Source of the DNA: a virus
Taxonomy: Duplodnaviria; Caudoviricetes
Virus record (IMG/VR): IMGVR_UViG_3300022401_000003
Span: 1,250-65,249 of that record
Strand: one strand, 5' to 3'
Length of the DNA: 64,000 nt
The first letter of the stretch is position 1; every line of letters begins with the position of its first letter. A model generated the notes under the pieces. That model saw only the letters and a program-made list of their open reading frames with translations, searched no databases and had not been told where the DNA came from. Of the stretch, positions 4,764-61,529 are shown piece by piece. The translations under genes were made by a program, and so were the position numbers.

Positions 4764-5197
4764 TTGAAATTCTCTATATCTGTGATTAAATCTTCTTTAT
4801 CTATCCCTTTGAGGAACTTGTATAGCACAAGGTCGATGCACTGATTGTAGAAGCGTTCAAACTCGTGTTGTTCCATTGCCGAGAATGATATGCTTTGGTA
4901 TTCTATCTCCTTTTCGCCTCGTTCGTTGAGGCTTGTTTTGAAGTAGCCCAAGTCTCGCTTGAAGCGGCGCAGCATATCTTCCTCATTGTGGACTTTGAAA
5001 TATTCTGCAAGGTTGGACGGCAGGTTGTCAAACGTGAGGCGCACCAATGCAAAGAACTTCTTGTGATGTTCGTAGTTGCGAGGGTTGCTAACCTTGCACT
5101 TGACGACAGAGCCGACACGAAGCCGTTTCTTCAAGTCGTAGTCGCTATCATAGAGCGGCACAAGACCGTGAGGCGTTACCTTGCAGAATATATCCAT
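4760..5197 (-). CDS. DUF1367/NinB-like protein
   Basis: PRNYEHHKKFFAL and SISFSAMEQHEFERFY motifs; probable start at 5197. Confidence 0.72.
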   Translation of the reverse strand: MDIFCKVTPHGLVPLYDSDYDLKKRLRVGSVVKCKVSNPRNYEHHKKFFALVRLTFDNLPSNLAEYFKVHNEEDMLRRFKRDLGYFKTSLNERGEKEIEYQSISFSAMEQHEFERFYNQCIDLVLYKFLKGIDKEDLITDIENFK

Positions 5198-5201
5198 AGG
5201 G

Positions 5202-5420
5202 CTATTTGAGGTCTGATGATGCAATCGCAAGAGCGACTATCGCAATTCGTACCTGTGTGCCATCTTCGCCAAACTTGTTGAAGTTCATTTTTATTGGAGC
5301 CTCTGTCAGTTCAGCCCAACGCTCCTCTGTTAATTTTTCGCCCATCAACATCATTGTTCCGGCTACCTCGTCTCTGTCAAACTCGACTTCGAGTTTCATT
5401 TTCTTGTTTTCTTCTGCCAT
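5202..5420 (-). CDS. Hypothetical protein
   Basis: 72-aa ORF tightly packed in the operon. Confidence 0.6.
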   Translation of the reverse strand: MAEENKKMKLEVEFDRDEVAGTMMLMGEKLTEERWAELTEAPIKMNFNKFGEDGTQVRIAIVALAIASSDLK

Positions 5421-5430
5421 AATTCTTTGA

Positions 5431-6105
5431 TTATAAATTGTTGTTAGTTACAGGTGGGCATAAGCACCAATATTGAAATGCCAATTCTTCGTATTTCTCA
5501 CGACCACGATTATAGACCTCATCGCCACGATTTATGAACTTCTTGAATATGCAGCAGTTCTTTTTGCTGATGGCGTAGATGAAATCACGGTTGCTCTTTG
5601 CGATGTCCATATACCAGGCACGACTCCTGTCCCAATCAAAGAAATCAACAGCTTCCTCGAACTGTTGCTGTGTGGCGGCGAATGTTGTTTTGAGGTCGCC
5701 ACCGAAGCCACCGAGCCACCAATCCCATTTGCACCGGGTATCGAGCGTGAACGGAAATTCGCAGTATGTGAACTGCTGTGCCTTATTGACCATAAAGCGT
5801 TGTGTTTCGGCACATTCAAGTACTTTGGCGAGGAACGCATCTTTGCGTGCTTCCATACGGAGAGCCTTTTGCATTTCCTGTGCGTGTCGGAACTCATCTT
5901 CTGTGTATGGCACATCGTCCACTGTTAGGCGGTAGTAGTCCACCTTTGACGGCTCTGTAATGATTGCATCGACCAACGAGCCGAAGCGGAACGCCGCCTC
6001 TTTGTCTCCGAACTGCATACGTGGATGTAAGATGTTTTTCAGTTCGGTGAGGTCAGAGTTACTGACCTCACTTCTGCTGTAATAATTATCGCTCATAGTA
6101 ATCAT
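5431..6105 (-). CDS. PD-(D/E)XK exonuclease, RecE/ExoVIII-like (DUF3799-like)
   Basis: YYSRSEVSNSDL, FRFGSLVDAII and RCKWDW...GGDLKTT motifs; lies in the RecT module. Confidence 0.82.
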   Translation of the reverse strand: MITMSDNYYSRSEVSNSDLTELKNILHPRMQFGDKEAAFRFGSLVDAIITEPSKVDYYRLTVDDVPYTEDEFRHAQEMQKALRMEARKDAFLAKVLECAETQRFMVNKAQQFTYCEFPFTLDTRCKWDWWLGGFGGDLKTTFAATQQQFEEAVDFFDWDRSRAWYMDIAKSNRDFIYAISKKNCCIFKKFINRGDEVYNRGREKYEELAFQYWCLCPPVTNNNL

Positions 6106-6114
6106 CGTAAATTC

Positions 6115-7308
6115 TTACTTCGCTTTTACGTCCTCGACATATTCCACACTCTCATCCTTGATGTACGTTCCCTCTTTGGCGAGTTTTTCACAGAATGTTA
6201 TCTGCTTCTTGAACATCTTGGTGAGTTCCTCAACAGAGAGGTGGCAACCCTCCTTGCTCCACCACATAGAGAGAATAGGCATAATGCCCTCGGGATTGAG
6301 CAGGTTGATTTTCTGTGCAACCTTTGCCTTTGGTTGGTAGCCGGAGGACACGACTGCTTGCTGACCGAACAGGCTTTCCATTTCGGACTGCTGACGTGCC
6401 ATTTCTGCCTTCTGCTTTTCTTCCTCCTCCTTGCGGCGGCGTTCTGCCTCCTGTTCCTCCGCTTCCTTGCGCTGACGTGCTTCCATTTCATCCTTGATAC
6501 GTGCAGCTTCCTCGGCTGATGCCTGTGCCATACGTTCGAGGTTGGTTTTCTTGGACGGCAGACGGTCGATGATGTACTGCTTTGTGCTGTCAATCTCGAA
6601 CTCGTATTGCTCCTTGAACTGCTTGGCAAGGCGTTCCTTTGTCTCAATCTCTGCCTTGCGTATCTCATCTACGGTTATTCCGGCAGGAATGCGAATGAGG
6701 GTGTGCAGGTTGTAGAGGAAGTCGGCAGGAAGTTCCGTTGAATAATCCTTAACCTGCTTGAATGATGCTTCGTAGTTGTCGAGGGTAACGGCATTGTCAA
6801 TGGCTGACAGAGCATTGCAGTCTCTGTTCACGAGTGTTTGGAACTGCTGCTTGAAGTCGTCCTCAATATCCTGTCGCATCTTGGTACGTGCCGCCTCTGC
6901 CTGTTGGCGTTCGTACTCCTTACGGCGGCGTTCCTCCTCCTCGGCACGTTTCTTGGCGGCGAACTGATTGCGGAACTGCTGCAACTTGTATGGGATTGTA
7001 TCGGCTTTGGTAGGGTCGATGGCATTCTCCATTACGGTGAACTCCTTGCGGATTGTGTCGAACAGTTGGGTAACAGGCGCACGGCGTTCGTTCATCTTCT
7101 TGACGGTCTTGCGTGCTTTCTCAATGTACTGTGCCGCACGTTGGTCGAGTTCGTCCGTCATTCCTCCCTGCACAATGGCATCGAGGATTGCTTGCCCGGC
7201 AGCTTCGCAGTTCTCACGAGATAGTTTGTTGTCCTTGTAGGACTGTGGAGCGGCAGACACGATAGTCTGTATATTCTCCTGCTTGATAATTGCTAATTCC
7301 TGTGACAT
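6115..7308 (-). CDS. Coiled-coil hypothetical protein in the recombination module
   Basis: 397 aa with E/K/R/Q-rich helical repeats, between RecT and the exonuclease. Confidence 0.75.
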   Translation of the reverse strand: MSQELAIIKQENIQTIVSAAPQSYKDNKLSRENCEAAGQAILDAIVQGGMTDELDQRAAQYIEKARKTVKKMNERRAPVTQLFDTIRKEFTVMENAIDPTKADTIPYKLQQFRNQFAAKKRAEEEERRRKEYERQQAEAARTKMRQDIEDDFKQQFQTLVNRDCNALSAIDNAVTLDNYEASFKQVKDYSTELPADFLYNLHTLIRIPAGITVDEIRKAEIETKERLAKQFKEQYEFEIDSTKQYIIDRLPSKKTNLERMAQASAEEAARIKDEMEARQRKEAEEQEAERRRKEEEEKQKAEMARQQSEMESLFGQQAVVSSGYQPKAKVAQKINLLNPEGIMPILSMWWSKEGCHLSVEELTKMFKKQITFCEKLAKEGTYIKDESVEYVEDVKAK

Positions 7309-7320
7309 AGTGGTATGGTG

Positions 7321-8271
7321 TTAGAATGTGTCGTCTGCGTTGTTTGATTGCTGTGCAGGGTCGATTGTTACACCTGCGGACATATCGGGTGCAGGTGCGA
7401 AATGCTGTTCCTGCTGTTGAGGCTGCTCTGTTCCAACACCGCCGTATGGGTCGATGTCTGTCGGTTGAGGCTGTTCGATGATTTCAGTTTCGAGAGCGGA
7501 GCCACGACCGATATTCAGTTTTGGGTAGGTCTTGAATGCGTGTTTCACGCACTTTGCCATAAGGAAGCCTGTGTCAATCTGACCGTTCTTGTTGTAGAGT
7601 TCGTTAGAGTTGGTTACCCATTGGTTTGTTTTGCGGTCAAAGTAGGAGTTTTGCTTGTCGCTGTAACCTTTAAGTCGCATCCAATCCTGTTCAGTCATCA
7701 CAGAATAGTCTATCGTACCATCGGCACGTGTAATCTTCAAGAAACAGGCAATAATCTTGTTGGACTTGCGAGGGAAAGCGGACATATAGTTCACTATCTT
7801 TTGTCCGTTCTGTTCTCCGTATTGGAATGTGTCGCCCTCGTACACGATAACAGGATTGTCGGCGTGGCGTATCTGTCCGGCATTCTTGCGCAGCACCAAT
7901 TCGCCATATCCCGAAATGGTAAGGTTGCAGACTTTCTCCCAAATGTCGTTGCCCTGTTGGTTTGTGCCTACCTTGACATTGCGAGGAATGAGGTAACAGA
8001 GTGCCTGTGCGCCCGGTGCAAGGGTAAGCCCCTTTACAGCAAGGTCAATAAAGGCATAGAAGATTGATGTACCAGAGCATTCACGCAGGTTGGCTTTGTC
8101 TCTCAACTGTTGGTTGAAGTAGATTGCCTCACGCTCGTACACCTGTTCGCCTCCCTCTTTCCAAATGGAGTTATAGACGTTGATGAATTGACTACGGACA
8201 CGCTCATTGCGTATCACATCGGTTGCTTTTGTCTGTTGCAACTCTTGGGCTAATGATAATGCATTGCTCAT
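7321..8271 (-). CDS. recT: RecT-family single-strand annealing protein
   Basis: GLTLAPG...CYLIPR, ISGYGEL, IVYEGDTF and MAKCVKHAFK motifs with an acidic tail; probable start at 8271 (the longer ORF start overlaps the tRNA-like element). Confidence 0.85.
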   Translation of the reverse strand: MSNALSLAQELQQTKATDVIRNERVRSQFINVYNSIWKEGGEQVYEREAIYFNQQLRDKANLRECSGTSIFYAFIDLAVKGLTLAPGAQALCYLIPRNVKVGTNQQGNDIWEKVCNLTISGYGELVLRKNAGQIRHADNPVIVYEGDTFQYGEQNGQKIVNYMSAFPRKSNKIIACFLKITRADGTIDYSVMTEQDWMRLKGYSDKQNSYFDRKTNQWVTNSNELYNKNGQIDTGFLMAKCVKHAFKTYPKLNIGRGSALETEIIEQPQPTDIDPYGGVGTEQPQQQEQHFAPAPDMSAGVTIDPAQQSNNADDTF

Positions 8272-8312
8272 AATGTTAATAATTAAAGTTATTGAAATAC
8301 AGTTGTCTGTTG

Positions 8313-8392
8313 TGGCTGCAAGCGGACTCGAACCGCTAACCCTCCATTGTGGCATACGACCCGGAGTGTAGTTCCCATTACTCTATACAGCC
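8313..8392 (-). tRNA. tRNA-like element with aberrant anticodon arm (isotype undetermined; possible pseudo-tRNA)
   Basis: Acceptor stem GGCTGTA/TGCAGCC, T-arm AGCGG-TTCGAGT-CCGCT, D-loop AATGG. Anticodon stem CTCCG/TGGAG encloses 15 nt. No CCA. Confidence 0.6.
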
Positions 8393-8398
8393 TTGTTG

Positions 8399-8671
8399 TT
8401 ATATCTTGAAATAGTCCTGTTTCACGTTCTGTAATGCTCTCAACTCTGCCGTGCGGTACTCGACTTTGCCGGGACGTTTACAAGGCTCTATCTTGCCCTC
8501 TATGCGCCACCTATCGACATTGCCACGTCCGAACATCGTGTATGCCTGTCGTTGGCTGACTGTCTCGGGGTCGTTGCGTACTTCGGAGAGCATACGCACT
8601 ACCGAAGCGGCAACATCGTGGATGAACGTCTCGTAGGTAACTGACTTGTCGGAAAAATCGAGTGTGAGCAT
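8399..8671 (-). CDS. Small HTH DNA-binding protein, excisionase-like
   Basis: SQRQAYTMFGRGNVDRWRIEGKIEP...VEY resembles the MerR/Xis-like winged helix. Confidence 0.6.
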   Translation of the reverse strand: MLTLDFSDKSVTYETFIHDVAASVVRMLSEVRNDPETVSQRQAYTMFGRGNVDRWRIEGKIEPCKRPGKVEYRTAELRALQNVKQDYFKI

Positions 8672-8675
8672 AGAT

Positions 8676-8876
8676 TTACTTTTTATTGGTTTGACTTTGA
8701 CACGCAGGTGTCTTGTCGTACTCTACATTTCGTTTGAGCAGGGTACAGTAGCGACCATTCAACTGCTCATAGGCTTTTGCACACTTGGCGCAAATGGGAT
8801 TGGTATGTGATGCCATAGTTAGAATATGCTTAATTGATGACCACGTTTCTTTACTGTGCGTTCGTAACGCTTGCAC
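8676..8876 (-). CDS. Small Cys-containing hypothetical protein
   Basis: CAKC...YC...C motifs; the true start may be an internal Met. Confidence 0.5.
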   Translation of the reverse strand: MQALRTHSKETWSSIKHILTMASHTNPICAKCAKAYEQLNGRYCTLLKRNVEYDKTPACQSQTNKK

Positions 8877-9046
8877 TTATCTTTGAAAGGACAGTTGCCG
8901 GACTTGGCTTGCTGATAGGCTGAATGAAAGGTGTCCCAATCCACACCACGAAGAAATCCCATCAAGTCCATACAAAACCAACCTTTATCCATTGATTTGT
9001 TCTCGCCTGTAATCTCGACAAGTCCGTTGCCTTTTGGTGTTCCCAT
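8819..9046 (-). CDS. Hypothetical protein
   Basis: 75-aa ORF overlapping its neighbours in the operon. Confidence 0.5.
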   Translation of the reverse strand: MGTPKGNGLVEITGENKSMDKGWFCMDLMGFLRGVDWDTFHSAYQQAKSGNCPFKDKCKRYERTVKKRGHQLSIF

Positions 9047-9561
9047 TACAATTGTTCTTTCTGATATTGTTCTACTTTTGCTTTCAGTCTCGCTTCTGCC
9101 AATGCAACACGTTCCTTTGCGAACTCCACCTTTGCACGAATTTTCTGCAATGCAGGGTCTGTGGCTTCATCAAAGAATAAGTTACCTTGATTGGCTTTGA
9201 TGTATGCTGCAACCCTGTTCTCCTGCAATGTGATTTTGCTCTTCAATGCCACGAGCTGCGACAGGTCGCTTCTAAATCCGTACTTCTCACCACTTGTCTT
9301 GTCATAGAAAGACATAGTGGTGTAGATATAACTTCGAGGGTCTGCACAGACAAACTTTGCTTTGCGCCAATCAATTACCCATTGCCAACGCTCTACACTT
9401 TCACGTGGCAGGTCGTAACGATGTAGCACGACCTCTTTTCCGTCCACCTTCTTGCAGATTAAGATTGCGACATACGCTTTAATGCTTAATTCTTTCTCTG
9501 CTTTGGCGTATGCCTTTGCGAGTTCTTGAAACTCTGCACCGATACCAACCTCCTGTGCCAT
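9046..9561 (-). CDS. Hypothetical protein
   Basis: 171-aa ORF translationally coupled to its neighbours. Confidence 0.75.
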   Translation of the reverse strand: MAQEVGIGAEFQELAKAYAKAEKELSIKAYVAILICKKVDGKEVVLHRYDLPRESVERWQWVIDWRKAKFVCADPRSYIYTTMSFYDKTSGEKYGFRSDLSQLVALKSKITLQENRVAAYIKANQGNLFFDEATDPALQKIRAKVEFAKERVALAEARLKAKVEQYQKEQL

Positions 9562-9564
9562 TGC

Positions 9565-9762
9565 TTACTTGTTTTTCTCTTGTTGATACTCACGATAAGA
9601 CTCGCGTACAAGTACCCACATCAAAAGGGCGAATAACAGAACTACGAGGAGACCGAATAAACCGATTGTGCCTTTGATGAGGTGAGCAATGCCCCAAGTG
9701 ATTGTTCCGAGGAACATAAAGACTGACATCGCAAGTTGGCTGAGGCTCATAAACTTATCCAT
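9565..9762 (-). CDS. Small membrane protein (2 predicted TM helices)
   Basis: Two hydrophobic stretches and a charged tail. Confidence 0.65.
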   Translation of the reverse strand: MDKFMSLSQLAMSVFMFLGTITWGIAHLIKGTIGLFGLLVVLLFALLMWVLVRESYREYQQEKNK

Positions 9763-9769
9763 AGTGATA

Positions 9770-9988
9770 TTATTTTGATGTTGAAAATTCCTCCACGACT
9801 ACAAATCTCTCAACCTTTACAGGGAAATCCGGCTCACCGTCAAACTCATTGTTCAGTTTGGCACACAAATTCATATTTTTGTGTGAACGGTCGAGGTTTA
9901 CATCACAGAGTAATGAGCCTTTGGCAGTCTGAAAAACCTCACGACCAAACGAGTCAAAACCGATACTCTTAATCTCAATCTTATTCAT
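9770..9988 (-). CDS. Hypothetical protein
   Basis: 72-aa ORF in the operon (GFDSFGREVF...EPDFP). Confidence 0.65.
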   Translation of the reverse strand: MNKIEIKSIGFDSFGREVFQTAKGSLLCDVNLDRSHKNMNLCAKLNNEFDGEPDFPVKVERFVVVEEFSTSK

Positions 9989-9990
9989 AA

Positions 9991-10143
9991 TTAGAAATCT
10001 GCTTTTAATTTGAGTTGTCTTAATACTTCTTTCAGTTCGCTGTCGGTGTATCTCTCGGCAATGCCACGAGGTACGCAGTTGTGGTTCATCGCTATTGTAA
10101 TAGCACGTTCTCTTGAAACCTTTGGAGTTCTTCTTCTAATCAT
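9991..10143 (-). CDS. Hypothetical protein (50 aa)
   Basis: Manual translation MIRRRTPKVSRERAITIAMNHNCVPRGIAERYTDSELKEVL...; fills the gap between ORFs. Confidence 0.55.
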   Translation of the reverse strand: MIRRRTPKVSRERAITIAMNHNCVPRGIAERYTDSELKEVLRQLKLKADF

Positions 10144-14209: not shown

Positions 14210-14707
14210 ATGGGACTTATTGGAAGCATTGTCGGCGGAGGACTTAGCGCAGCAGGTGCTATCTTCGGTGGTATCTCCGCATCGAAGGCAATGAAAAAAG
14301 CGAAGCGTAATGTTGAGGCACAGCGTAAGAAAAACCAAGATTGGTATGACCAACGCTACAACGAAGATGCGACACAGCGTGCCGATGCTCAACGTATCCT
14401 TACGCAAACCGAAGAGAGTATCAAACAGCGCAACAGGGCGGCGGCAGGTTCAGCAGCCGTTATGGGCGGTACAGATGAAAGTGTAGCGGCGGCGAAAGCT
14501 GCCAACAACGAGGCACTTGCTGACGCTACTGCGCAGATTGCGGCTAATGCTGATGCACGCAAAGACAGCATCGAAGCGACTTATCTACAAAACGACAACG
14601 CATATGTGGAGCAGTTGAACGCTATCGAGCAGGGCAAGGCACAGGCTATCAGTCAAGCAGTACAGGGCGTAGCAAACGCAGGTGCAAGTATCGCAGGCGC
14701 ATTCTAA
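14210..14707 (+). CDS. Internal virion/ejection (pilot) protein
   Basis: Gly/Ala-rich hydrophobic N-terminus (MGLIGSIVGGGLSAAGAIFGG) and A/Q-rich helices; first gene of the ejection cluster. Confidence 0.7.
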   Translation: MGLIGSIVGGGLSAAGAIFGGISASKAMKKAKRNVEAQRKKNQDWYDQRYNEDATQRADAQRILTQTEESIKQRNRAAAGSAAVMGGTDESVAAAKAANNEALADATAQIAANADARKDSIEATYLQNDNAYVEQLNAIEQGKAQAISQAVQGVANAGASIAGAF

Positions 14708-32894: not shown

Positions 32895-34868
32895 ATGCAT
32901 ACAGAAAAAGGAAATAAAAGGTTATTGTCTATGAGCCGTATCGCTCCCAAGCGTGATACGGAAGAGATAGACACCGTAGCGATGTCTTCCCGGCAGTTCG
33001 GCGACCGCAGGGCGTTCGATGTGCTGATGGAAGCGCAGCACTATTGGAACCAGATGGAGGATTTCCGAAAGGACAGAGAACGCAACAAGCGTTACACCTA
33101 TGGTTTCCAATGGGACGATAAAATTTGTGTGGACGGCAAGACTATGACCGAGGAAGAGTACATCAAGAGTCAGGGCAATGTGCCGTTGAAAAACAACCTT
33201 ATCCGCAGATTAGTCAAAAGTGTGCTTGGTGTGTACCGCAGTCAGAGTAAAGAGCCGACCTGTACCGCACGAGACCGAGACGAACAGAAGTTGGGCGAAA
33301 CAATGAGTACCATTCTGCAATGCAATATGCAACTTAACAGAATGACGGAGGTGTATGCCCGAACAATGGAAGAGTTTCTAATCAGCGGTTTTATAGTACA
33401 CCGCAAGTCATACGGTTGGCGTAATGGTAAGGAGGACTGTTGGACGGACTATGTTCAGCCAAACAATTTCTTTATCGACAACAATATGCGTGATTTCAGA
33501 GGTTGGGACGTTTCGGTGCTTGGCGAGATACACGACATTTCATTTGGGCAGTTGTGTGAGCAGTTCGCCACATCACCCGAGGAATACCGCAAACTCCGTG
33601 AAATCTACAAGTGGGCTGCTAAAAAGGAATACATTGCCTCGTATGCAGAGCGTTTCGGATATAGCCGTTTGCAGAATTACGACTTTCTGTTCACGAGCGA
33701 GCCGGGACGATGCAGGGTTATCGAGGTGTGGCGCAAGGAACAGAAACCACGTTGGCGATGCCACGACTACCAAAATGGCGACATCTTCAAGATTGACGTT
33801 GAGGACTACCAAAGGTGTGTTGTAGCCGAGAACGAGGAGCGTAAAAGAATGGCAAAGGCTGTCGGTATGCCCGAGGAGGAAGTGCCATTGATTAAAGCCA
33901 CTTGGTTTGTCGATGATTATTGGTATTTCTACTATCTGTCCCCATTCGGAGACATCTTGAAAGAGGGTGAAACGCCATACGAACACGACAGCCACCCATA
34001 CGTATTCAAGGCATATCCGTTCATTGACGGTGAGATACATTCGTTTGTGGCTGACGTTATCGACCAACAACGATACACCAACCGACTGATTACATTGTAC
34101 GATTGGATAATGCGTGCAAGTGCGAAAGGTGTGCTGATGATGCCCGAGGATTGTTTGCCGGATGGTGTCAGCATTGACGATATTGCCGAGAGTTGGACCG
34201 AGTTTAACGGTGTCATTGTCTATAAGCCGAGCAAGAGCGGCAAAGTGCCGGAACAGGTTGCCAACAATTCGACAAACATCGGTATTGCCGAGTTGCTGAA
34301 TATGCAGTTGAAGTTCTTTGAGGACATATCGGGTGTTACAGGTGCATTGCAAGGCAAGCCCGGATTTTCGGGCGAGAGTGCTGCACATTACCAACAGCAG
34401 ACACAGAACGCCACCACTACATTGCTTGACCTGTTGGAGTGCTTCAGCGGCTTTGTTGTGGACGGAGCGTACAAGGATGTCAAGAATATGCAGCAGTTCT
34501 ATGACAGCAAGAGAGTATTCAACATTGCAGGCAAGAGCGGCGCACAAATCGAGTACGACCCGAAGAAGATACGAGACGTGGAGTTCGATTTGAGCATTAC
34601 AGAAAGCACAACGACACCTGCATACAGACATCTTGCCAACGATATACTGTTGCAGTTGTGGCAATCGCAGGCAATCAGCGTAGAGCAGTTGCTTGAACAC
34701 GGAGACTTCCCATTTGCTGATGAATTGTTGCAGAGCATCAAATCGCAGAAAGAGCAGTTAGCGCAGGGCAAAGTTCCTGACGGTCTTTCTCCCGAACTGA
34801 TGGCGAAAGCACAGCAGGGAGCCAATATGCAAGCTGTAGGAAGATTGCACAGCGCAATGGCAGCATAA
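32895..34868 (+). CDS. Portal protein (P22 gp1-like)
   Basis: 657 aa with R..RY..G.QW, NNLIRR, DVIDQQRYTNR, ISGV..ALQG, ESAA and Q-rich C-terminal patterns. Confidence 0.85.
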   Translation: MHTEKGNKRLLSMSRIAPKRDTEEIDTVAMSSRQFGDRRAFDVLMEAQHYWNQMEDFRKDRERNKRYTYGFQWDDKICVDGKTMTEEEYIKSQGNVPLKNNLIRRLVKSVLGVYRSQSKEPTCTARDRDEQKLGETMSTILQCNMQLNRMTEVYARTMEEFLISGFIVHRKSYGWRNGKEDCWTDYVQPNNFFIDNNMRDFRGWDVSVLGEIHDISFGQLCEQFATSPEEYRKLREIYKWAAKKEYIASYAERFGYSRLQNYDFLFTSEPGRCRVIEVWRKEQKPRWRCHDYQNGDIFKIDVEDYQRCVVAENEERKRMAKAVGMPEEEVPLIKATWFVDDYWYFYYLSPFGDILKEGETPYEHDSHPYVFKAYPFIDGEIHSFVADVIDQQRYTNRLITLYDWIMRASAKGVLMMPEDCLPDGVSIDDIAESWTEFNGVIVYKPSKSGKVPEQVANNSTNIGIAELLNMQLKFFEDISGVTGALQGKPGFSGESAAHYQQQTQNATTTLLDLLECFSGFVVDGAYKDVKNMQQFYDSKRVFNIAGKSGAQIEYDPKKIRDVEFDLSITESTTTPAYRHLANDILLQLWQSQAISVEQLLEHGDFPFADELLQSIKSQKEQLAQGKVPDGLSPELMAKAQQGANMQAVGRLHSAMAA

Positions 34869-34911: not shown

Positions 34912-35118
34912 TTACTTCTTTGTAGAGTGAGAAATGTCTTCAAGATATTCTACGACATCATCTAATGTTACAACTTTGTCTTCGTGGCAGACAGGCTCAA
35001 TATTCTTTGCCATTGCCCAAATGCCATTTTTCTTGCCGATTGTTCCCTTTGCATTATCTGTGGCATTGGGGTTGTTGGTTAGCGTTGCTATACCGTCAAT
35101 GTTTCCGTACCTGCCCAT
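34912..35118 (-). CDS. Hypothetical protein
   Basis: 68-aa ORF overlapping the upstream gene. Confidence 0.55.
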   Translation of the reverse strand: MGRYGNIDGIATLTNNPNATDNAKGTIGKKNGIWAMAKNIEPVCHEDKVVTLDDVVEYLEDISHSTKK

Positions 35119-35473: not shown

Positions 35474-37573
35474 TTATATTGTTGCGGCAGATACCGCCTT
35501 TCTCTTCTTGGTTATAAACCTGCCCACACGAGGAACAAATCTCGGCAATTCCATTTCAAAGAAACAGATGTGCAGACCTATTGCACGTGTCATCAGCAAG
35601 TCATCGTGTTTTCCTGTAATTGCTCCGAATGCTCCGTTCGGTTTCTTCTCATAGCACAAGTATTCGTCCAGGCATCGTGCATCACGTTCGGTATAGAGGT
35701 TCTCACGAATGACCTTTACGAGTGTGGATATAATCATTGGTTTTGTTGCAATGTTGGTGTGGAAGCCATAATTCTTTGGCAAGCCCTCACGTATTGCCTC
35801 CTCTGACTGCTTGCGTGCATAGAGGTTGGGATAAATATCCTTAATCTGATTGAGGATAAACTGTGATTGGTCGCCGTCCACCTCACGCTCCTTGTCGTGT
35901 GTTTCGAGCGTGTTGCTCTCTATCACAAGCAGGGAGTTGTCATAGAACGCTGCTATCTGTGCCGCTTTCCACGCCAACAAGTCAATGTCTATGTGTCCGT
36001 ACCATTGTGCCACAACCGTAGGTTTTCCACCCTCTGCCATAAACAGACGGTCGAGAACGAGGATAACAGAGAAGTCGGCTTTGTTGGAACGTCCTCCGAC
36101 ATCGACTATCGTAACATATCTGTCTGTTACAATCTCTTTATCGTCAATCTCGGGCATTTCCCAAATGTGGAGCAAGCCCTGTTTATCTTCGGTGAAGCGT
36201 AGGTTTTTCAAAGCATTTTTGCCCTCATCTTCATCGGCATACACCTCACCAATGTAGCGAGGTGGGCGACACGATGGGCGCAGCTTCTCAACCTTGTATT
36301 TGTCGAACACTCTTGCTCCCGAATGTACGAAAGCCTCAACATCATCTGACGGGAACTCTGCCGCCATCAGTCCGTGGTCGGTGTACTTTGCACGCTCCTG
36401 TATGTACCAATTTATTGCTTCGAGGGTTGCGCCCTGTTCCCATAACCACCACAGATATTTTCCGCTCTCCTCACGAACTGACGGAACATTGTCGTTCTCA
36501 CGGTTGGCATAGAGCATCTGTGCGAATATCTCCACATCATCGAGAGGCAAAGAATACTGCTCAATATCAAACCACGAAACGAACATCGCTTCAAACTGTG
36601 ATTTTCCGCTCTTGGCATCGTCATACTCCTTTTGGAAGAAGTTACCTGTACCATTGGCGGTACTCTCATATACAATCATCGTGTAAGGACGGAGCAATAC
36701 ACCCGAGCAAGCAGAGCGCACAATATCTTCGGGCTTCTTTCCCTCTGTTGCTTTCCACAGTCCGACCTCGGAAAGATGCACGAGGTTATAATCACCACCA
36801 CGACAAGAGTCCGGGCGTTCTGCTGTACCAATCTTGATTTTGCAGTTACGCTGTGGTACACGATGAATACTGCCCGACTTACCAACGCCGACCAATTTAG
36901 GCTCATTCTCATTGTATGCCTCGCCTAACTTGTGCAGCATTTCCACAGGATAGTTCTTAATCATACGGTCGAACATATCCTTGATTTCGTCAGAGCCTGC
37001 GCCTTGATGTGCAATGATAAGCGAGTTCAAACCGACCTTGTGAACGAGTTGCAACCACGCCATATACAACTGCGATGTGGTTGAGCCGCCCCATTGTCGA
37101 GCCTTCAAGAGAACAATACGAATAGGCTTGTTTGCCTTGCGGCGTTTTTCCAAACGTGCAATAAACCTACGTTGAGGACGTGTGAGGCGAAATAATACAT
37201 CTTCGCCACCACCTTTGTTCTTGATATATACAAATGTAGCCGCCCAAAAGGGAAAGTCGTGTCTGTTTCTGATGCGTACAAACTGACTGATAACTTTTAG
37301 TCGGTCGCTTTCGTAGTCCTCCTCTTCGTTTGCTCCGAGTTCCTGCAAGAACGCTTTAATGGAGCCGCATTCCGCAAGTTGCCGTACAAGCGGCACTTTC
37401 ATCATTTCGACAGGCAGGTATTGCGTGCGTATGGGGAAGTCATCAATAACCACCTTAACACGCTCACCGACCGAGCCGAAGCCGCTAATCGGGTCGAAAC
37501 GTGCATATATCTCCGCATTACGGCGGTTGTTCTCTTCGATGATATTGCGTATTGCGATGTTCATATCAGCCAA
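35474..37573 (-). CDS. terL: Terminase large subunit
   Basis: IVLLKARQWGGST Walker A region, VHLSEV Walker B, YESTANG, IVDVGG nuclease Asp, IESN and HDDLLM motifs. Confidence 0.93.
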   Translation of the reverse strand: MADMNIAIRNIIEENNRRNAEIYARFDPISGFGSVGERVKVVIDDFPIRTQYLPVEMMKVPLVRQLAECGSIKAFLQELGANEEEDYESDRLKVISQFVRIRNRHDFPFWAATFVYIKNKGGGEDVLFRLTRPQRRFIARLEKRRKANKPIRIVLLKARQWGGSTTSQLYMAWLQLVHKVGLNSLIIAHQGAGSDEIKDMFDRMIKNYPVEMLHKLGEAYNENEPKLVGVGKSGSIHRVPQRNCKIKIGTAERPDSCRGGDYNLVHLSEVGLWKATEGKKPEDIVRSACSGVLLRPYTMIVYESTANGTGNFFQKEYDDAKSGKSQFEAMFVSWFDIEQYSLPLDDVEIFAQMLYANRENDNVPSVREESGKYLWWLWEQGATLEAINWYIQERAKYTDHGLMAAEFPSDDVEAFVHSGARVFDKYKVEKLRPSCRPPRYIGEVYADEDEGKNALKNLRFTEDKQGLLHIWEMPEIDDKEIVTDRYVTIVDVGGRSNKADFSVILVLDRLFMAEGGKPTVVAQWYGHIDIDLLAWKAAQIAAFYDNSLLVIESNTLETHDKEREVDGDQSQFILNQIKDIYPNLYARKQSEEAIREGLPKNYGFHTNIATKPMIISTLVKVIRENLYTERDARCLDEYLCYEKKPNGAFGAITGKHDDLLMTRAIGLHICFFEMELPRFVPRVGRFITKKRKAVSAATI

Positions 37574-38057
37574 TCTTTACAGGTTTGTTCAACAATGCCA
37601 CCGCCCCACCTGCCAAATAGCAGTACAGGTGTACCAACGCATTGGTATTCGGGAAAAAGAAGCCTGCCACAAGGTATGCAAGCATCCATAACTGATAATA
37701 TGCTTTACGCTGTACCTCGAACGAGATAGAGCCGAAGAGTGCAAACACAACGCCCGACAAACCAACGGTAGGAATGTCGGACAGACAAAATGACGGAACT
37801 CCAACTGCGATGATATATGCAAGGGTAAACCGCCATAGCGATATGTCATAGATGAATATGACAGAGAGCAGACACCACGCATTCAGCGTTGCGTGTAACA
37901 GGTTAGCGTGATAGAACGGATAAAGCATACGACAGCCGAGTCCGCACCCTGTATAGATGCCGACCGCAGACCAATCCGCCATATCCTGCAAAGAGAGACA
38001 GAACACGAGGATTGATATTAAAAGCGACGTAGCCTTTGCTGCTTTCTTCTTATCCAT
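37566..38057 (-). CDS. Minimal rhomboid-family intramembrane serine protease
   Basis: FYHANLLHATLN (HxxxxHxxxN), catalytic GLSG, catalytic His in NALVHLYCYLAG; hydrophobic TM segments. Confidence 0.85.
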   Translation of the reverse strand: MDKKKAAKATSLLISILVFCLSLQDMADWSAVGIYTGCGLGCRMLYPFYHANLLHATLNAWCLLSVIFIYDISLWRFTLAYIIAVGVPSFCLSDIPTVGLSGVVFALFGSISFEVQRKAYYQLWMLAYLVAGFFFPNTNALVHLYCYLAGGAVALLNKPVKIG

Positions 38058-38452
38058 TCTTTCCTCGCTTTACAAACCATAATTTTGGCACTGCCGGGTG
38101 TGAGATAGAATTTCGGTGCAGGCTGAATGACAACCATTGCACAGAGTTCAGAAGTAGTCTTATCGGGATATTTCTCACGCATTATGGCTACACGGCGGTA
38201 GATTTCTTCGTACATCTCACGTTTGGAAGCACACATCTTATCCAAACGTGCCTCTCCCCTCATCATCGCAGAAATGACAAGAGCAGCACGAATGTCGCTA
38301 ACCCAAAAACGGCGTGATGGCATATTGACAATGTTGTTGTACACATCGGGCATACGGATATAGTCGCACGATGCAAGATATTCATCGTACGCCCTCATCA
38401 AGTCGTCTGAACGCTCTTGTGAGTACTCCATCAATGCACCCTTATGCTTCAT
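38018..38452 (-). CDS. Hypothetical protein (possible regulator), first gene of the terL operon
   Basis: 144 aa with PSRRFWVS and PAPKFYLTP motifs. Confidence 0.7.
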   Translation of the reverse strand: MKHKGALMEYSQERSDDLMRAYDEYLASCDYIRMPDVYNNIVNMPSRRFWVSDIRAALVISAMMRGEARLDKMCASKREMYEEIYRRVAIMREKYPDKTTSELCAMVVIQPAPKFYLTPGSAKIMVCKARKEWIRRKQQRLRRF

Positions 38453-38585: not shown

Positions 38586-39374
38586 ATGTCTAAGAATACG
38601 GAAGTTAAAAGCAATCGAGACCGATACACGGAACGATTGAAAGCGAAGTATCCCGACAAGGAATTTGCCGATGATGAGGCGTTATTCGGTCAAATCAATG
38701 ACGATTACGACAGTTACGACAATGAATTATCGGGTTATCGTGAGCGAGAAAAAGCCCTTTCAGACCTATTCGCAAGCAATCCACGCAGTGCAGCTTTCCT
38801 TACCGATTGGCGAAAGGGTGAAGACCCTATCATCGGAATGGTGCGCAAATTCGGTGATGATTTCAAGGCAGCACTTGAAGACCCCGAGAAGCAGGAGGCA
38901 CTTGCCGCCGCCAATAAGGAGTTTGCGGAGCGTATTGCCCAAGAGGAGCAGTATGAGGGCGAGTATCAAACCAACATCAATGAAACCCTAACCACACTCG
39001 AAGCAATGCAACAGGAAGAGGGATTGTCTGATGAGGACATCGACAATGCTATGGATTTCCTTATGGGTATTGTTCGTGACGGCATTATGGGCAAGTTCAC
39101 TCGTGAGAGCGTGATTATGGCACTCAAAGCCATTAAGCACGACAGCGATGTAGAGCAGGCAGACCGTGAGGGCGAAGTTCGAGGACGCAACACCAAGATT
39201 GAAGAGAAGTTGCGCAAGGGTAGCAAGAGTGACGGCACAGCCAACCTCAGCAGCAAAAACGGAGGTGGCAAGGGTGCAGCACGAGAAATGCCCGATTTAG
39301 GAGCCATTGACCAGAACTACGGTACTCAAAATATTTGGGAACGTGGCGGAGAGAAACGCAGACCAAACAAGTAA
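38586..39374 (+). CDS. Putative scaffolding protein
   Basis: Acidic coiled-coil protein immediately upstream of the capsid gene. Confidence 0.7.
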   Translation: MSKNTEVKSNRDRYTERLKAKYPDKEFADDEALFGQINDDYDSYDNELSGYREREKALSDLFASNPRSAAFLTDWRKGEDPIIGMVRKFGDDFKAALEDPEKQEALAAANKEFAERIAQEEQYEGEYQTNINETLTTLEAMQQEEGLSDEDIDNAMDFLMGIVRDGIMGKFTRESVIMALKAIKHDSDVEQADREGEVRGRNTKIEEKLRKGSKSDGTANLSSKNGGGKGAAREMPDLGAIDQNYGTQNIWERGGEKRRPNK

Positions 39375-39413: not shown

Positions 39414-40850
39414 ATGAAGAAAGCAACAAGTTTTCTGTGTCGCATCTTGCTAATAGCATTAGCATTTGTGACGGGCGCATCGGGCGGTGTCTTTATGGCT
39501 AACGCCTCCGAACTCCCCGATGCAGGTAAGACAGTAGCCGGTGCTGATGGCACAGGCGGAACGGACGGTATCGCAACGGAGACCGTAGGTAGAACTGAGG
39601 GCGACCCAAATTTTTATTTGAGCGATGTGGACAAACGCATCGTGAAGATACGCCCGATGGCAACCCCTATCGACCAAATCAGCCGTTATGCGAAGTCGAG
39701 CAGCACGAACTCGTTCGAGGTCAAGTATTACAGCGTAGGCACACGAGAAATCAAGTGCAGCACAAGCGCAAAGGTTACTGCTATGACCGCAGGCGCAAGT
39801 GTATCGCTCCCTGTGGACGACCTCAATATGTTCACTTTGGACGATACTATCCGCGTAGTAGGTGTGCCTGCCAAGACTAAACCCGATGGAACGGCGTACA
39901 CTTCCGAAGACAGCCTCATCCCCGACCTTGTATTGTGTGTATGCGGTAAGGACAGCACTACCAATCTGCCTACCGTCTATGCAGTAAACGGTACGATGGA
40001 CAGCTCTACCAAGCAGCCTATCCTTGTACCCGAAATTCCACAGGGAACTACCCTTGTGCGTATGGGTAAGGCTTGCGGTGAGTTGGACGTACAGACAGGA
40101 CGTTTCAACAACATTCCTATGCCGGAGACACAGTACTGCCAAAACTTTATGATACAGGTTGAGCAGTCCACCTTCGACAAGATTGCGGCCAAGGAAGTGA
40201 ATTGGAATTTCTCTGACATTGAGGAGGACGGCGTATATGATATGCGTCTTGCTATGGAGAATACCTATCTGTTTGGTGTTAAGAACGTCATCAAGCACAT
40301 TGCAAAGGACGGTATGAACACTTGGTTTACAGGCGGTATTTGGTGGATGGCAGGTAAGGACATTGAGGTCGGCGAGTGGGACAGCGACAAGAAGTGTGCT
40401 GTTATCACAGATGAAAACCTCGTGGATATTACCAAAGACCTCTTTGTCGGTACAGGTATCGGTAACAAGCGTAAAATCCTTTTCTGCGGTAGTGATATGC
40501 TCTCTGCTTTCTCAAAGATTAAGAGTGAGAAGTTCCGTCTGAAAGACACCGTAGAGGTTTGGAACTTGAAGTTCAAGTCTTGGGATACCGATTTCGGCGA
40601 GGTACTCACCATTCATCACGAGTTGTTCGATGTGAACGGTATGAGCGACTGCGGTTTTGCAATGGACCCCGAATACTTGTCAAAGAAAACTCATATCTCT
40701 TGGGCAAGAAACGTACTCGACTTGCAGAAGGCAGGTATTCGCCGTACAGATGCCGTAGTTATTCAGGAGGTAAGTTGCTTGTACTTGCGCTATGCAAAGG
40801 CACACGCACGTATGAAACTTGCCAAAGCACCTACTGCTGCGGCAGCATAA
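39414..40850 (+). CDS. Major capsid protein with a hydrophobic N-terminal leader
   Basis: Follows the scaffold gene and precedes a terminator. QYCQNFM.QVEQS, MRLAMENTYLFG and FTGGI motifs. N-terminus MKKATSFLCRILLIALAFVTGASGGVFMA. Confidence 0.8.
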   Translation: MKKATSFLCRILLIALAFVTGASGGVFMANASELPDAGKTVAGADGTGGTDGIATETVGRTEGDPNFYLSDVDKRIVKIRPMATPIDQISRYAKSSSTNSFEVKYYSVGTREIKCSTSAKVTAMTAGASVSLPVDDLNMFTLDDTIRVVGVPAKTKPDGTAYTSEDSLIPDLVLCVCGKDSTTNLPTVYAVNGTMDSSTKQPILVPEIPQGTTLVRMGKACGELDVQTGRFNNIPMPETQYCQNFMIQVEQSTFDKIAAKEVNWNFSDIEEDGVYDMRLAMENTYLFGVKNVIKHIAKDGMNTWFTGGIWWMAGKDIEVGEWDSDKKCAVITDENLVDITKDLFVGTGIGNKRKILFCGSDMLSAFSKIKSEKFRLKDTVEVWNLKFKSWDTDFGEVLTIHHELFDVNGMSDCGFAMDPEYLSKKTHISWARNVLDLQKAGIRRTDAVVIQEVSCLYLRYAKAHARMKLAKAPTAAAA

Positions 40851-52436: not shown

Positions 52437-52679
52437 ATGAAGAAACTTATCGAATGGATTAAGCAAAGCAACAGGTGGAAACACCTTGCAGGCGGCTACC
52501 TTATAGGACTTTGTGCCGACACGAACTATTGCGCCGCCTATACCTCTGTGATTGCAGGTGCTTGTCTTGAATACAAGGACAAGGCGACAGGCGGCAAATG
52601 GGATTGGATTGACTTCGGGCTGACCGTAGGCGGTGCAGTTCTTGGGCGTGTAACTCGACTAATCATTGGCGTGCTATGA
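52437..52679 (+). CDS. Small membrane protein (holin/antiholin candidate)
   Basis: SNRWKHL...LEYKDK..GGKWDWID...GG with hydrophobic helices; in the lysis cluster. Confidence 0.6.
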   Translation: MKKLIEWIKQSNRWKHLAGGYLIGLCADTNYCAAYTSVIAGACLEYKDKATGGKWDWIDFGLTVGGAVLGRVTRLIIGVL

Positions 52680-53278
52680 ATGAGGTACAGGGTGTAACGG
52701 AGATTGCGGAGGGTATCAGCAACTTCGGGATTATGATTGTGATTTGCGCAGCTTTCATTGTCCTTTCGCTGTTGATGTGGGTAGCCATTTTCAAATGGTT
52801 CAAGAGCATCATTGACAACACGATGAAGAACAATGCCAAAGTGATGAACGAGTTGCTGAAAAAGACTGACGCACAGAATGAGTTACTGAATGACATTGCA
52901 GACGGTATGCGACCTGCCACGCTGTTGCAGATTAAGAACATATCGAACACGTGTTTTGACTTGGCTGTGGAGCGTGTGTGCCGCATCATCAAAAAAGTGC
53001 GTGAGGAAAACAACATCATTAACAAGGAAGCAACCAAAGCGAAGATACGGACATTGCTCTGCAACTTGCACGAGGACAGGAACAGCCGCTTTGACAACCA
53101 CCGATACAGAGGCAAGACCTTGACACAGTACACTGCCCCCGAATGGATTGATTGGGTTGCAGAGATTGTAGAGAGTGAGGTATATGCCGAGACACAGAAT
53201 AATGCAAGAGCCTTTACCAACGTGGAGGCTGTCTATTCAAAGATACGACTTGATTTCTACCACCGATTAACCGATTAG
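52676..53278 (+). CDS. Putative holin-like protein (single N-terminal TM)
   Basis: GIMIVICAAFIVLSLLMWVAIF TM helix; directly upstream of the endolysin. Confidence 0.55.
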   Translation: MNEVQGVTEIAEGISNFGIMIVICAAFIVLSLLMWVAIFKWFKSIIDNTMKNNAKVMNELLKKTDAQNELLNDIADGMRPATLLQIKNISNTCFDLAVERVCRIIKKVREENNIINKEATKAKIRTLLCNLHEDRNSRFDNHRYRGKTLTQYTAPEWIDWVAEIVESEVYAETQNNARAFTNVEAVYSKIRLDFYHRLTD

Positions 53279-53281
53279 GAT

Positions 53282-53881
53282 ATGAAGATACTTATTGACA
53301 ACGGACACGGCAAGAATACACCAGGCAAGAGAAGCCCGGACGGAAAGTTTAGGGAGTACCTCTATGCACGTGAGATTGCCGAAGCCATTGAGGGCGAATT
53401 GAAGTTCTTGGGTTTAGATGCAGAGCGTATCGTAACCGAGACGGAAGATATTTCCCTTGAAGAACGTGCAAGGCGAGTGAACGAGATTTGCGGACGTTTG
53501 GGCGCAGAGAACGTTGTGCTTGTTTCCATTCACTGCAACGCATCGAAAAACAGCGAATGGGGCAAGGCTCGTGGTTGGAGTGCCTATACAAGCAAAGGCA
53601 AGACCAAGAGCGATGAACTTGCCACTATGCTGTATGTGGAAGCCGCAAAGAACTTTGCCGGGCAGACACTACGCAAAGAGTTTTCGGACGGCGACCCCGA
53701 TTGGGAGGAGGGTTTCTATGTGCTGCGCAAGACGAAGTGCCCTGCTGTGCTGACTGAAAATTTCTTTATGGACAATGAGCAAGACCTTGCCTACCTCACA
53801 TCGGAGGAGGGACGTGAGGCTATCATCAGAACGCACGTTGCCGCATTGACAAATTGGGACTATAAGTATGGAAAAGGTTAA
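53282..53881 (+). CDS. Endolysin, N-acetylmuramoyl-L-alanine amidase (Amidase_3)
   Basis: ILIDNGHG, REY, VSIHCNA and AVLTENFFMDN zinc-amidase motifs. Confidence 0.93.
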   Translation: MKILIDNGHGKNTPGKRSPDGKFREYLYAREIAEAIEGELKFLGLDAERIVTETEDISLEERARRVNEICGRLGAENVVLVSIHCNASKNSEWGKARGWSAYTSKGKTKSDELATMLYVEAAKNFAGQTLRKEFSDGDPDWEEGFYVLRKTKCPAVLTENFFMDNEQDLAYLTSEEGREAIIRTHVAALTNWDYKYGKG

Positions 53882-59794: not shown

Positions 59795-59989
59795 TTAATC
59801 GTTAAACAAATTGGTCTGTTTCGGTTGTTGAGGTGTTCCGATGATGTTATTCACACGCTCAATCTCTTTGTCAATCTCGGTTTCGAGAGCCTTGCTGTTA
59901 CGCAGGGCGGTTTGGTTGCGAGTTTTGAAATACTCCTTTTGAGCCTTACGCATAAGGGCAACCTTTTGGAAGAATGTTTTTGCGTCCAT
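59795..59989 (-). CDS. Hypothetical protein
   Basis: MDAKTFFQKVALMRKAQKEYFKTR...; probable start at 59989. Confidence 0.65.
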   Translation of the reverse strand: MDAKTFFQKVALMRKAQKEYFKTRNQTALRNSKALETEIDKEIERVNNIIGTPQQPKQTNLFND

Positions 59990-59990
59990 A

Positions 59991-61529
59991 TCAAGCAGCG
60001 TTCTTAAAGTGTTCTTTGAGTTTGGCACATAGAGCCTCACACCAACGGCGAGCGATGGTAACCTCTACGGCATTGCCGATATACTTCTTTTGCTCCGCCT
60101 GTGTTCCTACCAACACATAATCCTCGGGAAAGCCCATAATCTTTTTGAGTTCGGGAATTTTGAGCATACGCATTGTAATTTCCACAATGCCATACAGAGC
60201 CATAAACTCCTTAATCTTTACCATCATAGGAGTGTCGGTATCGTAGATGCAGTATTTGTAACCTTCTTCGGTAGGAACAATAAAGTCGGGTAACTCGTTG
60301 CTCTGTGTTGAGGCTTCCACGAGGTAAGGCGGCATCTTATCCATTCGGGCAATGAGCGTGAAGCAGGGCTTATCTATGGAACTGCCCTTTGACTTGTATT
60401 GAGGATTGAGAAGAAACCTCTTGACGGTTACCAAAGAAATCTTATCCTTTGTTGTCAATGTAGGAGCAGGCTGTTCGCAAGAACGATTAGAGCCATTACC
60501 ATAGTGGACCGATATAAATGCGTGGTGGTCTTTGCAGGTGATTGCTCCAGCAGGTGCTTCGACCGATACATTTTTGCTCATTGGGTCGCCGCTGAACTGC
60601 TTGGACAGGAACTGTACCTTTGCCAAACCGAGGCGGTTTTGCGTGGCGACAGTTGGGCAAGGCTCATCAATGGACGGAGGTATGTGTTTGCCTGTTCTCT
60701 TATTGACTGAATTGTATTTGACGATAAAGGCTTCTTTGCCCTCGGCAACAAACTTTATCAGCCCTGCGTAGATACGTTCCAATGTAGCCTCAACGAGTGG
60801 CTTTTTGCGCCCGAAGATGCTATCGCCCTCATCATCGAAGTCCAGGCACTCACGCACAGGTCGCCATTTTTCCAATGTCCCGAACAATGAAGATGTACCC
60901 TCCTTGCTGTGTGTGGCTTCGGGGAATGTGATTGGTAAACCTTTCTTGCCGAAGATACCAAAGAAACGTTTGCGTGAGGTGTAAGCACCGTAATCGGCAG
61001 CATTGAGTATGCGATATTCAAAGTTATAGCCATACTTCTTTACATTGCGTACCCAACGTGTGTAACTCTTGCCCTTATCCATTGAAACAGGCTTGCCGTT
61101 CTCATCCACATCACCCCACGACATAAATTCCTCTACGTTTTCTATCTGTATGTAGTCGGGGTTGATTGCTTCGATGTAACGGAACAGGTGTTCAGCGAGT
61201 GTGCGACTATCTGCATCACGAGGCATACCGCCTTTTGCCTTGCTGAAATTGGTACACTCCAACGATGCCCACAGCACTACCAACGCATCGGGGTACTGAC
61301 GGCGGCAACTTTGCAGATGCGTGAGCAATGGCGAGAGTTCCAATGTTCGTATATCCTCGGTGAAGTGCATTGCCTCTGGGTGATTGGCAGCGTGCGAGGC
61401 AATGGCGTTCTTGTCGTGATTGACACAGGCGATAACGGTTGCGCACTGCTTATCATCGAGGCGAGCGGAGTTTACGCCGGAGGAAGTTCCCCCGGCTCCG
61501 CAAAATAGGTCTATGTATAGTAGTTTCAT
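59991..61529 (-). CDS. Orphan C5-cytosine DNA methyltransferase
   Basis: Motif I DLFCGAGG, motif IV ASLECTNFS, motif VI ENV, motif VIII RKRFF, motif X IGNAV. Confidence 0.92.
   Translation of the reverse strand: MKLLYIDLFCGAGGTSSGVNSARLDDKQCATVIACVNHDKNAIASHAANHPEAMHFTEDIRTLELSPLLTHLQSCRRQYPDALVVLWASLECTNFSKAKGGMPRDADSRTLAEHLFRYIEAINPDYIQIENVEEFMSWGDVDENGKPVSMDKGKSYTRWVRNVKKYGYNFEYRILNAADYGAYTSRKRFFGIFGKKGLPITFPEATHSKEGTSSLFGTLEKWRPVRECLDFDDEGDSIFGRKKPLVEATLERIYAGLIKFVAEGKEAFIVKYNSVNKRTGKHIPPSIDEPCPTVATQNRLGLAKVQFLSKQFSGDPMSKNVSVEAPAGAITCKDHHAFISVHYGNGSNRSCEQPAPTLTTKDKISLVTVKRFLLNPQYKSKGSSIDKPCFTLIARMDKMPPYLVEASTQSNELPDFIVPTEEGYKYCIYDTDTPMMVKIKEFMALYGIVEITMRMLKIPELKKIMGFPEDYVLVGTQAEQKKYIGNAVEVTIARRWCEALCAKLKEHFKNAA

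Follow-up and report, generated by a model that had tools for sequence, protein, structure and literature searches.

A membrane-type leader on the major capsid protein of a gut Bacteroides phage and a neighbouring rhomboid gene point to a possible membrane step in head building

The DNA analysed here, a stretch of 64,000 nucleotides referred to below as the window, covers all but a small part of a virus record of 65,249 bp that is rated complete and belongs to a gut Bacteroides phage. The cultured phages closest to it, BS-TP4, BKO1-TP3 and BF1-TP2, are temperate phages of Bacteroides (PMC12694917); the capsid proteins of the first two are 90–92% identical to that of the window, and that of BF1-TP2 is 49% identical. 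BS-TP4 was detected in 31% of 930 viromes (PMC12694917), and the family to which it belongs occurs at high abundance in the human gut. The head and packaging module of the window comprises genes for a portal protein, the large terminase, a small rhomboid protease, a 144-aa soluble protein, a probable scaffolding protein and the major capsid protein (Table 1). Within this module, a hydrophobic N-terminus is found on the capsid protein only.

Table 1. Coordinates of the head and packaging genes, of their sequence elements and of possible alternative rhomboid substrates in the window
Feature	Position	Strand	Basis or remark
P22-like portal protein	32895..34868	+	PF16510 at 2.6e-38; N-terminus, as read, not hydrophobic
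Large terminase	35474..37573	-	phrog_2 at 2.7e-20 and ORF map; start overlaps rhomboid stop by 8 nt
Mini-rhomboid, 163 aa, six-helix core	37566..38057	-	Pfam PF01694 and AlphaFold2 model
H143, predicted catalytic histidine, last helix	37629..37631	-	invariant
G99-L-S101-G102, predicted catalytic serine S101	37752..37763	-	G99 and S101 invariant
Rhomboid TM2 motif H50-x4-H55-x3-N59	37881..37910	-	invariant in alignments
144-aa soluble protein	38018..38452	-	5' of rhomboid gene, 40-nt overlap; phrog_27246, function unknown
262-aa acidic protein, probable scaffolding protein	38586..39374	+	directly 5' of capsid gene; from position and composition
Major capsid protein precursor, 478 aa, SU10-like HK97 fold	39414..40850	+	PF17236, phrog_26635, AlphaFold2 model
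Leader n-region, M1-R10 (K2, K3, R10 basic)	39414..39443	+	kept family-wide
Leader h-region, I11-V19 (ILLIALAFV)	39444..39470	+	helix 2-19 in model
Leader c-region, T20-A29 (TGASGGVFMA)	39471..39500	+	candidate cleavage region; alignments
Met28 codon	39495..39497	+	alternative start weighed in the earlier note; G+C-rich context
Disordered acidic Gly/Thr/Asp-rich linker, N30 to ~G68	39501..39617	+	contains conserved LPDAG
200-aa membrane protein, holin candidate	52676..53278	+	alternative rhomboid substrate; adjoins Amidase_3 endolysin 53282-53881
201-aa DUF6808 protein, N-terminal hydrophobic segment	53868..54473	+	alternative rhomboid substrate

The arrangement of the module is shared with relatives. 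The rhomboid gene adjoins the large terminase gene in the window, in BS-TP4 and BF1-TP2 and in the relatives L086, L089, L110 and L137, and the gene for the 144-aa protein—which, judged by its position alone, may be the small terminase—occupies the same place in BF1-TP2, L110, L137 and L089. The scaffold candidate corresponds to a gene of 250–295 aa that is syntenic across all relatives, and yielded no family match except phrog_22323.

Some annotations around the module deserve mention. In the GenBank records of cultured relatives, L001 (PQ571277) and L003 (PQ571263), the large terminase is labelled “tail spike protein”, the capsid protein “DUF2951/DUF5309 protein” and a 68-aa soluble protein “YajC”; by profile match, the first two products are a terminase and an SU10-type capsid protein. 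The “YajC” label, carried by gp5 of BS-TP4, was rejected, given that the window homologue (34912–35118, minus strand) contains no hydrophobic segment and has no Pfam match. Farther away, a 165-aa protein (14210–14707, plus strand), encoded just upstream of ORFs of 406 and 5625 aa, gave a weak match to the T7 gp14 internal virion protein (23.5 bits, cut-off 27), which fits an ejection-protein module running into the giant ORF.

The capsid ORF, the translation of which starts MKKATSFLCRILLIALAFVTGASGGVFMANASELPDAG, matches the SU10_MCP family (Pfam PF17236) at 5e-30 with 105 bits against a cut-off of 24.1, and its match to phrog_26635 spans the entire protein, leader included. An AlphaFold2 model based on an input of 25 homologues contains a helix at residues 2–19, a disordered stretch at residues 21–68 (pLDDT <50) and a confident HK97 fold from residue 65 onward. 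In a Foldseek comparison with known structures, this model retrieved the VP1 capsid (5.7e-21) and also those of crAss001, SU10 and HK97; a sequence search of solved structures returned the capsid of Vibrio phage VP1 as the sole match, covering the fold only. Window positions 39414–39500 encode a leader, MKKATSFLCRILLIALAFVTGASGGVFMA, which is joined via a disordered linker of ~40 residues to an HK97-fold capsid protein. The leader has the layout of Sec-type signals, with an n-region (K2/K3/R10), an h-region (I11–V19) and a c-region (T20–A29), and this layout is retained family-wide. Substitutions in the h-region among homologues exchange one hydrophobic residue for another, and, in the alignments, at least 90% of the rhomboid-bearing clade share G21 and A29. 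The linker varies in length across the family, with G38 of its LPDAG motif being invariant in the alignment.

An earlier note on this DNA, made from the sequence, had described the capsid protein as beginning with a signal- or transmembrane-like leader, and the comparison with relatives bears this out. A basic N-terminus, a hydrophobic run and the motif GASSGV-x-MA-[DN]A[ST]xLPDAG are present, in frame and free of stops, in nearly all (>110) of the best 120 clusters at 90% identity, the few shorter entries among them being cases in which gene callers chose internal Met codons; the same layout was read in 43 of 44 distant representatives at 26–54% identity, and the leader is thus retained in relatives as remote as ~29% identity. 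When the DNA of 15 relatives is aligned, synonymous codon changes are seen within the leader while G21, A29 and G38 stay unchanged, and the A/T-rich DNA preceding the first ATG diverges freely. The contrast in base composition pointed out in the earlier note was likewise recovered: the 39 nt before the first ATG contain 23% G+C, and the 39 nt before Met28 contain 56%. Met28 itself is replaced by Ile in the relative L082, and the relatives P0225 and L100 lack any Met in the interval from leader to conserved N-arm, so that the leader must be translated there. Taken together, leader conservation, the context of the first ATG and the loss of Met28 in relatives make Met28 unlikely as the sole start, and the sequence comparison confirms, far beyond chance, that the leader is a translated segment of membrane type under selection. 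One relative, L157, has at 9809–10000 an Arg/Leu/Val-rich N-terminus of 60 residues (MVRLSWLRRLCLMAV...) in place of leader and linker and retains the rhomboid, an arrangement suggestive of a frameshift or of misassembly in the leader region.

The rhomboid gene lies 1357 nt from the start of the capsid gene, in agreement with the distance of about 1.4 kb in the earlier note. Its product scores 27.4 and 26.7 bits with PF01694, above the cut-off of 22.6 for rhomboids (MEROPS S54), and the corresponding AlphaFold2 model (pLDDT 89.5, pTM 0.87) retrieved exclusively GlpG or iRhom structures at PDB ranks 1–38 in Foldseek, with TM-scores of 0.55–0.73 at a probability of 1.00 but E-values of only ~1e-3. 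The residues H50, H55, N59, G99, S101 and H143 are invariant in homologues at 26–99% identity, and in 17 phage homologues (26–78% identity) Y46, P96 and G150 join these six as invariant positions. By sequence and predicted structure, this is an intact rhomboid with the full catalytic set and a GlpG-like fold; its basic N-terminus and six helices suggest that both termini are located in the cytoplasm and that the active site faces the periplasm. Its classification as a rhombosortase was rejected, given that the profile TIGR03902 yielded 18.7 bits, far under the cut-off of 84. When the complete genome was searched with profiles of other proteases (S78, S77, S49, ClpP, S26), none gave a match above threshold, and neither a phage signal peptidase nor a prohead protease was found. 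The only other protease-like signal, a sub-threshold Peptidase_S49 fragment of 11.9 bits in an 89-codon frame (59843–60025, minus strand), is probably noise.

To relate leader and rhomboid, whole virus records were searched with a rhomboid profile in two screens, and the results were compared at clade level, kinship being ignored. Three groups of capsid proteins emerge. In the short-leader clade, with capsid identity to the window reaching down to ~33%, the leader ends in G-x3-4-[VC]-x-M-A, and a rhomboid was found in 16 of 38 mixed records and in 49 of 50 further ones, and every record of this clade that holds the terminase block also holds the rhomboid. If each screen is restricted to records with a completeness of 90% or more, the rhomboid is present in 11 of 12 records in one and in 25 of 26 in the other. 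The long-leader clade (26–30% identity) has leaders of 45–60 residues without the x-M-A ending and with a second, weakly hydrophobic Gly/Ala-rich stretch, e.g., GVTGLLGLGSAGVILAVGAIVA in L097; no rhomboid was found in it even at E<=10, whether with the Pfam model or with our own profile. The third group, with 33–43% identity, is leaderless and resides in chromosomal cassettes, within 8–10 kb of which no rhomboid was found. All rhomboid-bearing relatives that were read carry a short leader ending in x-M-A, and all rhomboid-less relatives that were read have either the long two-part leader or none. Searches of viral contigs with single distant proteins, and of genome contigs with a profile of the long-leader clade, gave no match.

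One record at first sight breaks this pattern, namely G045 (L025), a 92%-identical relative of 53 kb rated 100% complete, which has the short leader and no rhomboid. In its region 5000–10000, unrelated ORFs on the plus strand stand upstream of the scaffold gene where the 144-aa gene, the rhomboid gene and the large terminase gene would be expected, and a terminase was found nowhere in the record, which indicates a rearranged or chimeric contig with an overestimated completeness; it was dismissed as an exception since the terminase block is missing along with the rhomboid, i.e., as a truncated record.

The earlier note had expected the leader to be conserved only in rhomboid-encoding phages, and this expectation failed. 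The long-leader genome G016, which is 60.8 kb long, has terminal repeats, is 100% complete and encodes a 44% identical terminase, and four further long-leader records, 80–88% complete, encode a leader-bearing capsid protein and have no rhomboid (E<=10), so the basic role of the leader does not need a phage rhomboid. The rhomboid was found only in leader-bearing genomes, and specifically in those with the short type, the presence of which it tracks at clade level; of the two, the leader has the greater age and the wider distribution. In the long-leader relatives L117, L090 and L088, the terminase gene is immediately next to those for scaffold and capsid protein. In the rhomboid-less L090 and L084, small genes neighbouring the terminase were considered as substitute membrane proteases and discarded, as they encode soluble proteins.

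Leaderless homologues were seen only in small chromosomal capsid–portal cassettes, e.g., L174 8885–12242, L175 9463–13632, L176 943–4329 and L177–L256. These cassettes consist of a small ORF, the capsid gene, an ORF of ~170 aa and a short P22-like portal gene (427–452 aa), surrounded by housekeeping genes (SusC/D, RecQ/RecJ, AsnA); neither terminase nor scaffold nor rhomboid genes were found nearby. At least 454 such loci are present in species-representative Bacteroidales genomes, with hosts including Muribaculaceae, Prevotellaceae, Porphyromonadaceae and Paramuribaculum intestinale DSM 100749, and the cassette may be a domesticated capsid–portal module.

How well the leader would suit a rhomboid depends on cleavage site and topology. 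Rhomboid substrates carry a small residue at P1 and hydrophobic residues at P4 and P2', and the known bacterial substrates are oriented N-out, with the cut close to the outer helix end (PMC2941825). For a cut between A29 and N30, P1 (A29) and P4 (V26) fit, while P2' (A31) is small and does not; helix breakers are provided by G21, S23, G24 and G25. The positive charges before the helix (K2, K3, R10) and the negative ones after it (E33, D36) predict that the N-terminus lies inside and the capsid domain outside the cell, an orientation opposite to that of canonical rhomboid substrates. The interpretation of the earlier note finds partial support, in the conserved membrane-type leader, the intact rhomboid of the head module, the lack of a match to any other head protease and the correlation between leader type and rhomboid; tethering of whole procapsids to the inner membrane is that note's conjecture. 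Either enzyme, rhomboid or signal peptidase, would cut at the periplasmic face. A mature capsid protein acting outside the cytoplasm is not to be expected, DNA packaging being the task of a cytoplasmic terminase.

The reading that we tentatively favour, at somewhat less than an even chance, is that the leader-bearing precursor goes to the membrane or the Sec machinery, that the leader is removed near A29 and that this processing is coupled to the phage rhomboid. The precursor would be made up of a membrane leader (residues 1–29), the disordered acidic linker of ~40 residues and the HK97-fold body. The leader would most likely take the newly made capsid protein to the inner membrane or the Sec translocon and would then be removed near A29, and the rhomboid, produced together with the terminase, would either cut the leader or clear it from the membrane. 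More speculatively, the leader might insert as a loop, with the linker threading back through the channel, so that the folded body would stay inside the cell and be freed upon cleavage; this would reconcile the cut site with a cytoplasmic capsid. Membrane insertion, leader removal, the cleavage site and the cutting enzyme are all points that we infer. A functional coupling of rhomboid and leader is possible rather than probable; direct cleavage of the leader by the rhomboid we consider rather unlikely.

Of the alternatives, the one that survives best, albeit somewhat unlikely in our estimate, regards the leader as an ordinary Sec signal or anchor that is cut by the host signal peptidase I, here and in the rhomboid-less relatives alike, with the rhomboid having another job; it might trim a membrane protein of the lysis cassette, act on host membrane proteins or serve in quality control. 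The leader indeed has a textbook layout, distant relatives have clean A-M-A and V-M-A as well as A-M-T sites, and in the window itself T20-G-A22 (cut before S23) and A22-S-G24 (cut before G25) would suit signal peptidase. Leaders are, moreover, present in phages without a rhomboid, and the genome encodes other single-pass membrane proteins, including the holin candidate of the lysis cassette at 52676–53278, the acidic N-side and basic C-side flanks of which suggest an N-out orientation; according to PMC7232013, orphan membrane proteins are cleared by bacterial rhomboids. Against this stands the genomic setting, since the rhomboid is fixed in the terminase operon beside the capsid genes and not in the lysis cassette, and its presence follows the leader type. 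Furthermore, a cut between A29 and N30 would place Ala at -1, and at -3 Phe in the window and Met, Phe or Leu in most close relatives, which is poor for signal peptidase, and the conservation of GASSGVxMA-[DN]A[ST]xLPDAG exceeds the needs of a bare -3/-1 rule.

Quite improbable is a second alternative, by which the leader would not be removed by proteolysis at all, serving, much like a SAR or delta domain, as a permanent or reversible membrane anchor or as a hydrophobic helix for assembly, and ending up inside the capsid or being shed unproteolysed. The N-termini of HK97-type capsid proteins point into the procapsid, and the second Gly/Ala-rich stretch of the long leader could form a hairpin with the first helix that would leave the body in the cytoplasm. 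However, several hundred hydrophobic helices with their 40-residue linkers would have to share the room in each head with 65 kb of DNA, the conserved small-residue motif resembles a processing site, and we know of no solved HK97-fold capsid with a comparable hydrophobic segment. The last alternative, that the virion protein starts at Met27/28 and that the leader is a gene-calling extension or a minor long isoform, is very improbable: the short-leader clade does conserve a Met with a small residue after it at this site, and some gene callers picked it as the start (P0085, P0088), yet the 27 preceding codons show the amino-acid conservation and synonymous change described above, the A/T-rich context belongs to the first ATG, and the Met is lost in L082 and in long-leader relatives.

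The favoured reading, i.e., membrane targeting followed by rhomboid-coupled leader removal, has partial counterparts in known systems. In HK97 (gp5 delta domain with gp4) and T4 (gp23 with gp21), propeptides are soluble, scaffold-like domains, and soluble proteases (S78 or S77) cut them within the procapsid; these systems resemble the one proposed here in that an HK97-fold capsid protein is produced with an N-terminal portion that is lost as the head matures, whereas in the present phage no S78/S77 protease was found and a separate scaffold-like gene is present. Prohead initiation in T4, where the portal gp20 is assembled with gp40 at the inner membrane and released later, provides a precedent for a tailed-phage head starting at this membrane; there, however, it is the portal and not the capsid protein that is membrane-held, and neither a signal-like leader nor an intramembrane protease is involved. 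With Sec signal peptides processed by signal peptidase I, the leader shares a basic n-region, a hydrophobic core of 9–13 residues and a c-region of small residues, but its cargo is a cytoplasmic capsid protein that has to meet terminase and DNA, and Phe or Met occupies -3 in the clade of the window. The mitochondrial rhomboid PARL cuts PINK1 within its inserted N-terminal targeting segment, and the C-terminal domain, which never crosses the membrane, returns; the likeness lies in an N-terminal membrane segment cut by a rhomboid with the large domain going back to its starting compartment, while the setting is a eukaryotic organelle, the outcome is protein turnover and the proteins are unrelated.

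Among bacterial systems, the rhomboid AarA of Providencia stuartii activates the single-pass protein TatA by trimming a short N-terminal segment, cutting after a small P1 residue near helix-breaking Gly/Ser (PMC3712462; PMC2941825). TatA is oriented N-out, loses 8 residues only and stays in the membrane; the phage leader, by contrast, is predicted to be N-in, the whole hydrophobic segment would be removed to yield a soluble capsid product, and both partners are phage-encoded. Rhombosortases and their GlyGly-CTERM substrates (PMC3237569) likewise combine a dedicated rhomboid with a three-part signal (Gly-rich motif, helix and basic cluster), the two often being encoded near each other, and GASGG of the window resembles the SGGS motif of that signal. 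GlyGly-CTERM, however, is C-terminal and found on exported proteins, whereas the phage leader is N-terminal with its elements in mirror order.

A literature search for phage rhomboids, signal-like leaders on capsid proteins or DUF5309 retrieved no relevant description. The prevailing view places the assembly of tailed-phage capsids wholly in the cytoplasm and ascribes their maturation to soluble prohead proteases; for bacterial-type rhomboids, natural substrates are, to our knowledge, largely unknown. Against this background, leader and rhomboid point, at the level of sequence, to a possible, undescribed membrane step in the building of tailed-phage heads, the link between rhomboid and capsid leader being plausible but unproven. 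That a large family of Bacteroidales tailed phages routes its HK97-fold capsid precursor through the inner membrane or Sec, and that one lineage has recruited a mini-rhomboid, co-expressed with the terminase, as its maturation protease, is a wider proposal that we regard as doubtful. If rhomboid and leader are linked, they would represent a new route of capsid maturation and a defined enzyme–substrate pair for bacterial-type rhomboids, and would raise the question of how a Sec-type leader suits a cytoplasmic product. If the rhomboid does mature the capsid, virus head assembly would thereby have its first example of an intramembrane protease, and phage rhomboids would have, in rhomboid and capsid precursor, their first defined natural enzyme–substrate pair.
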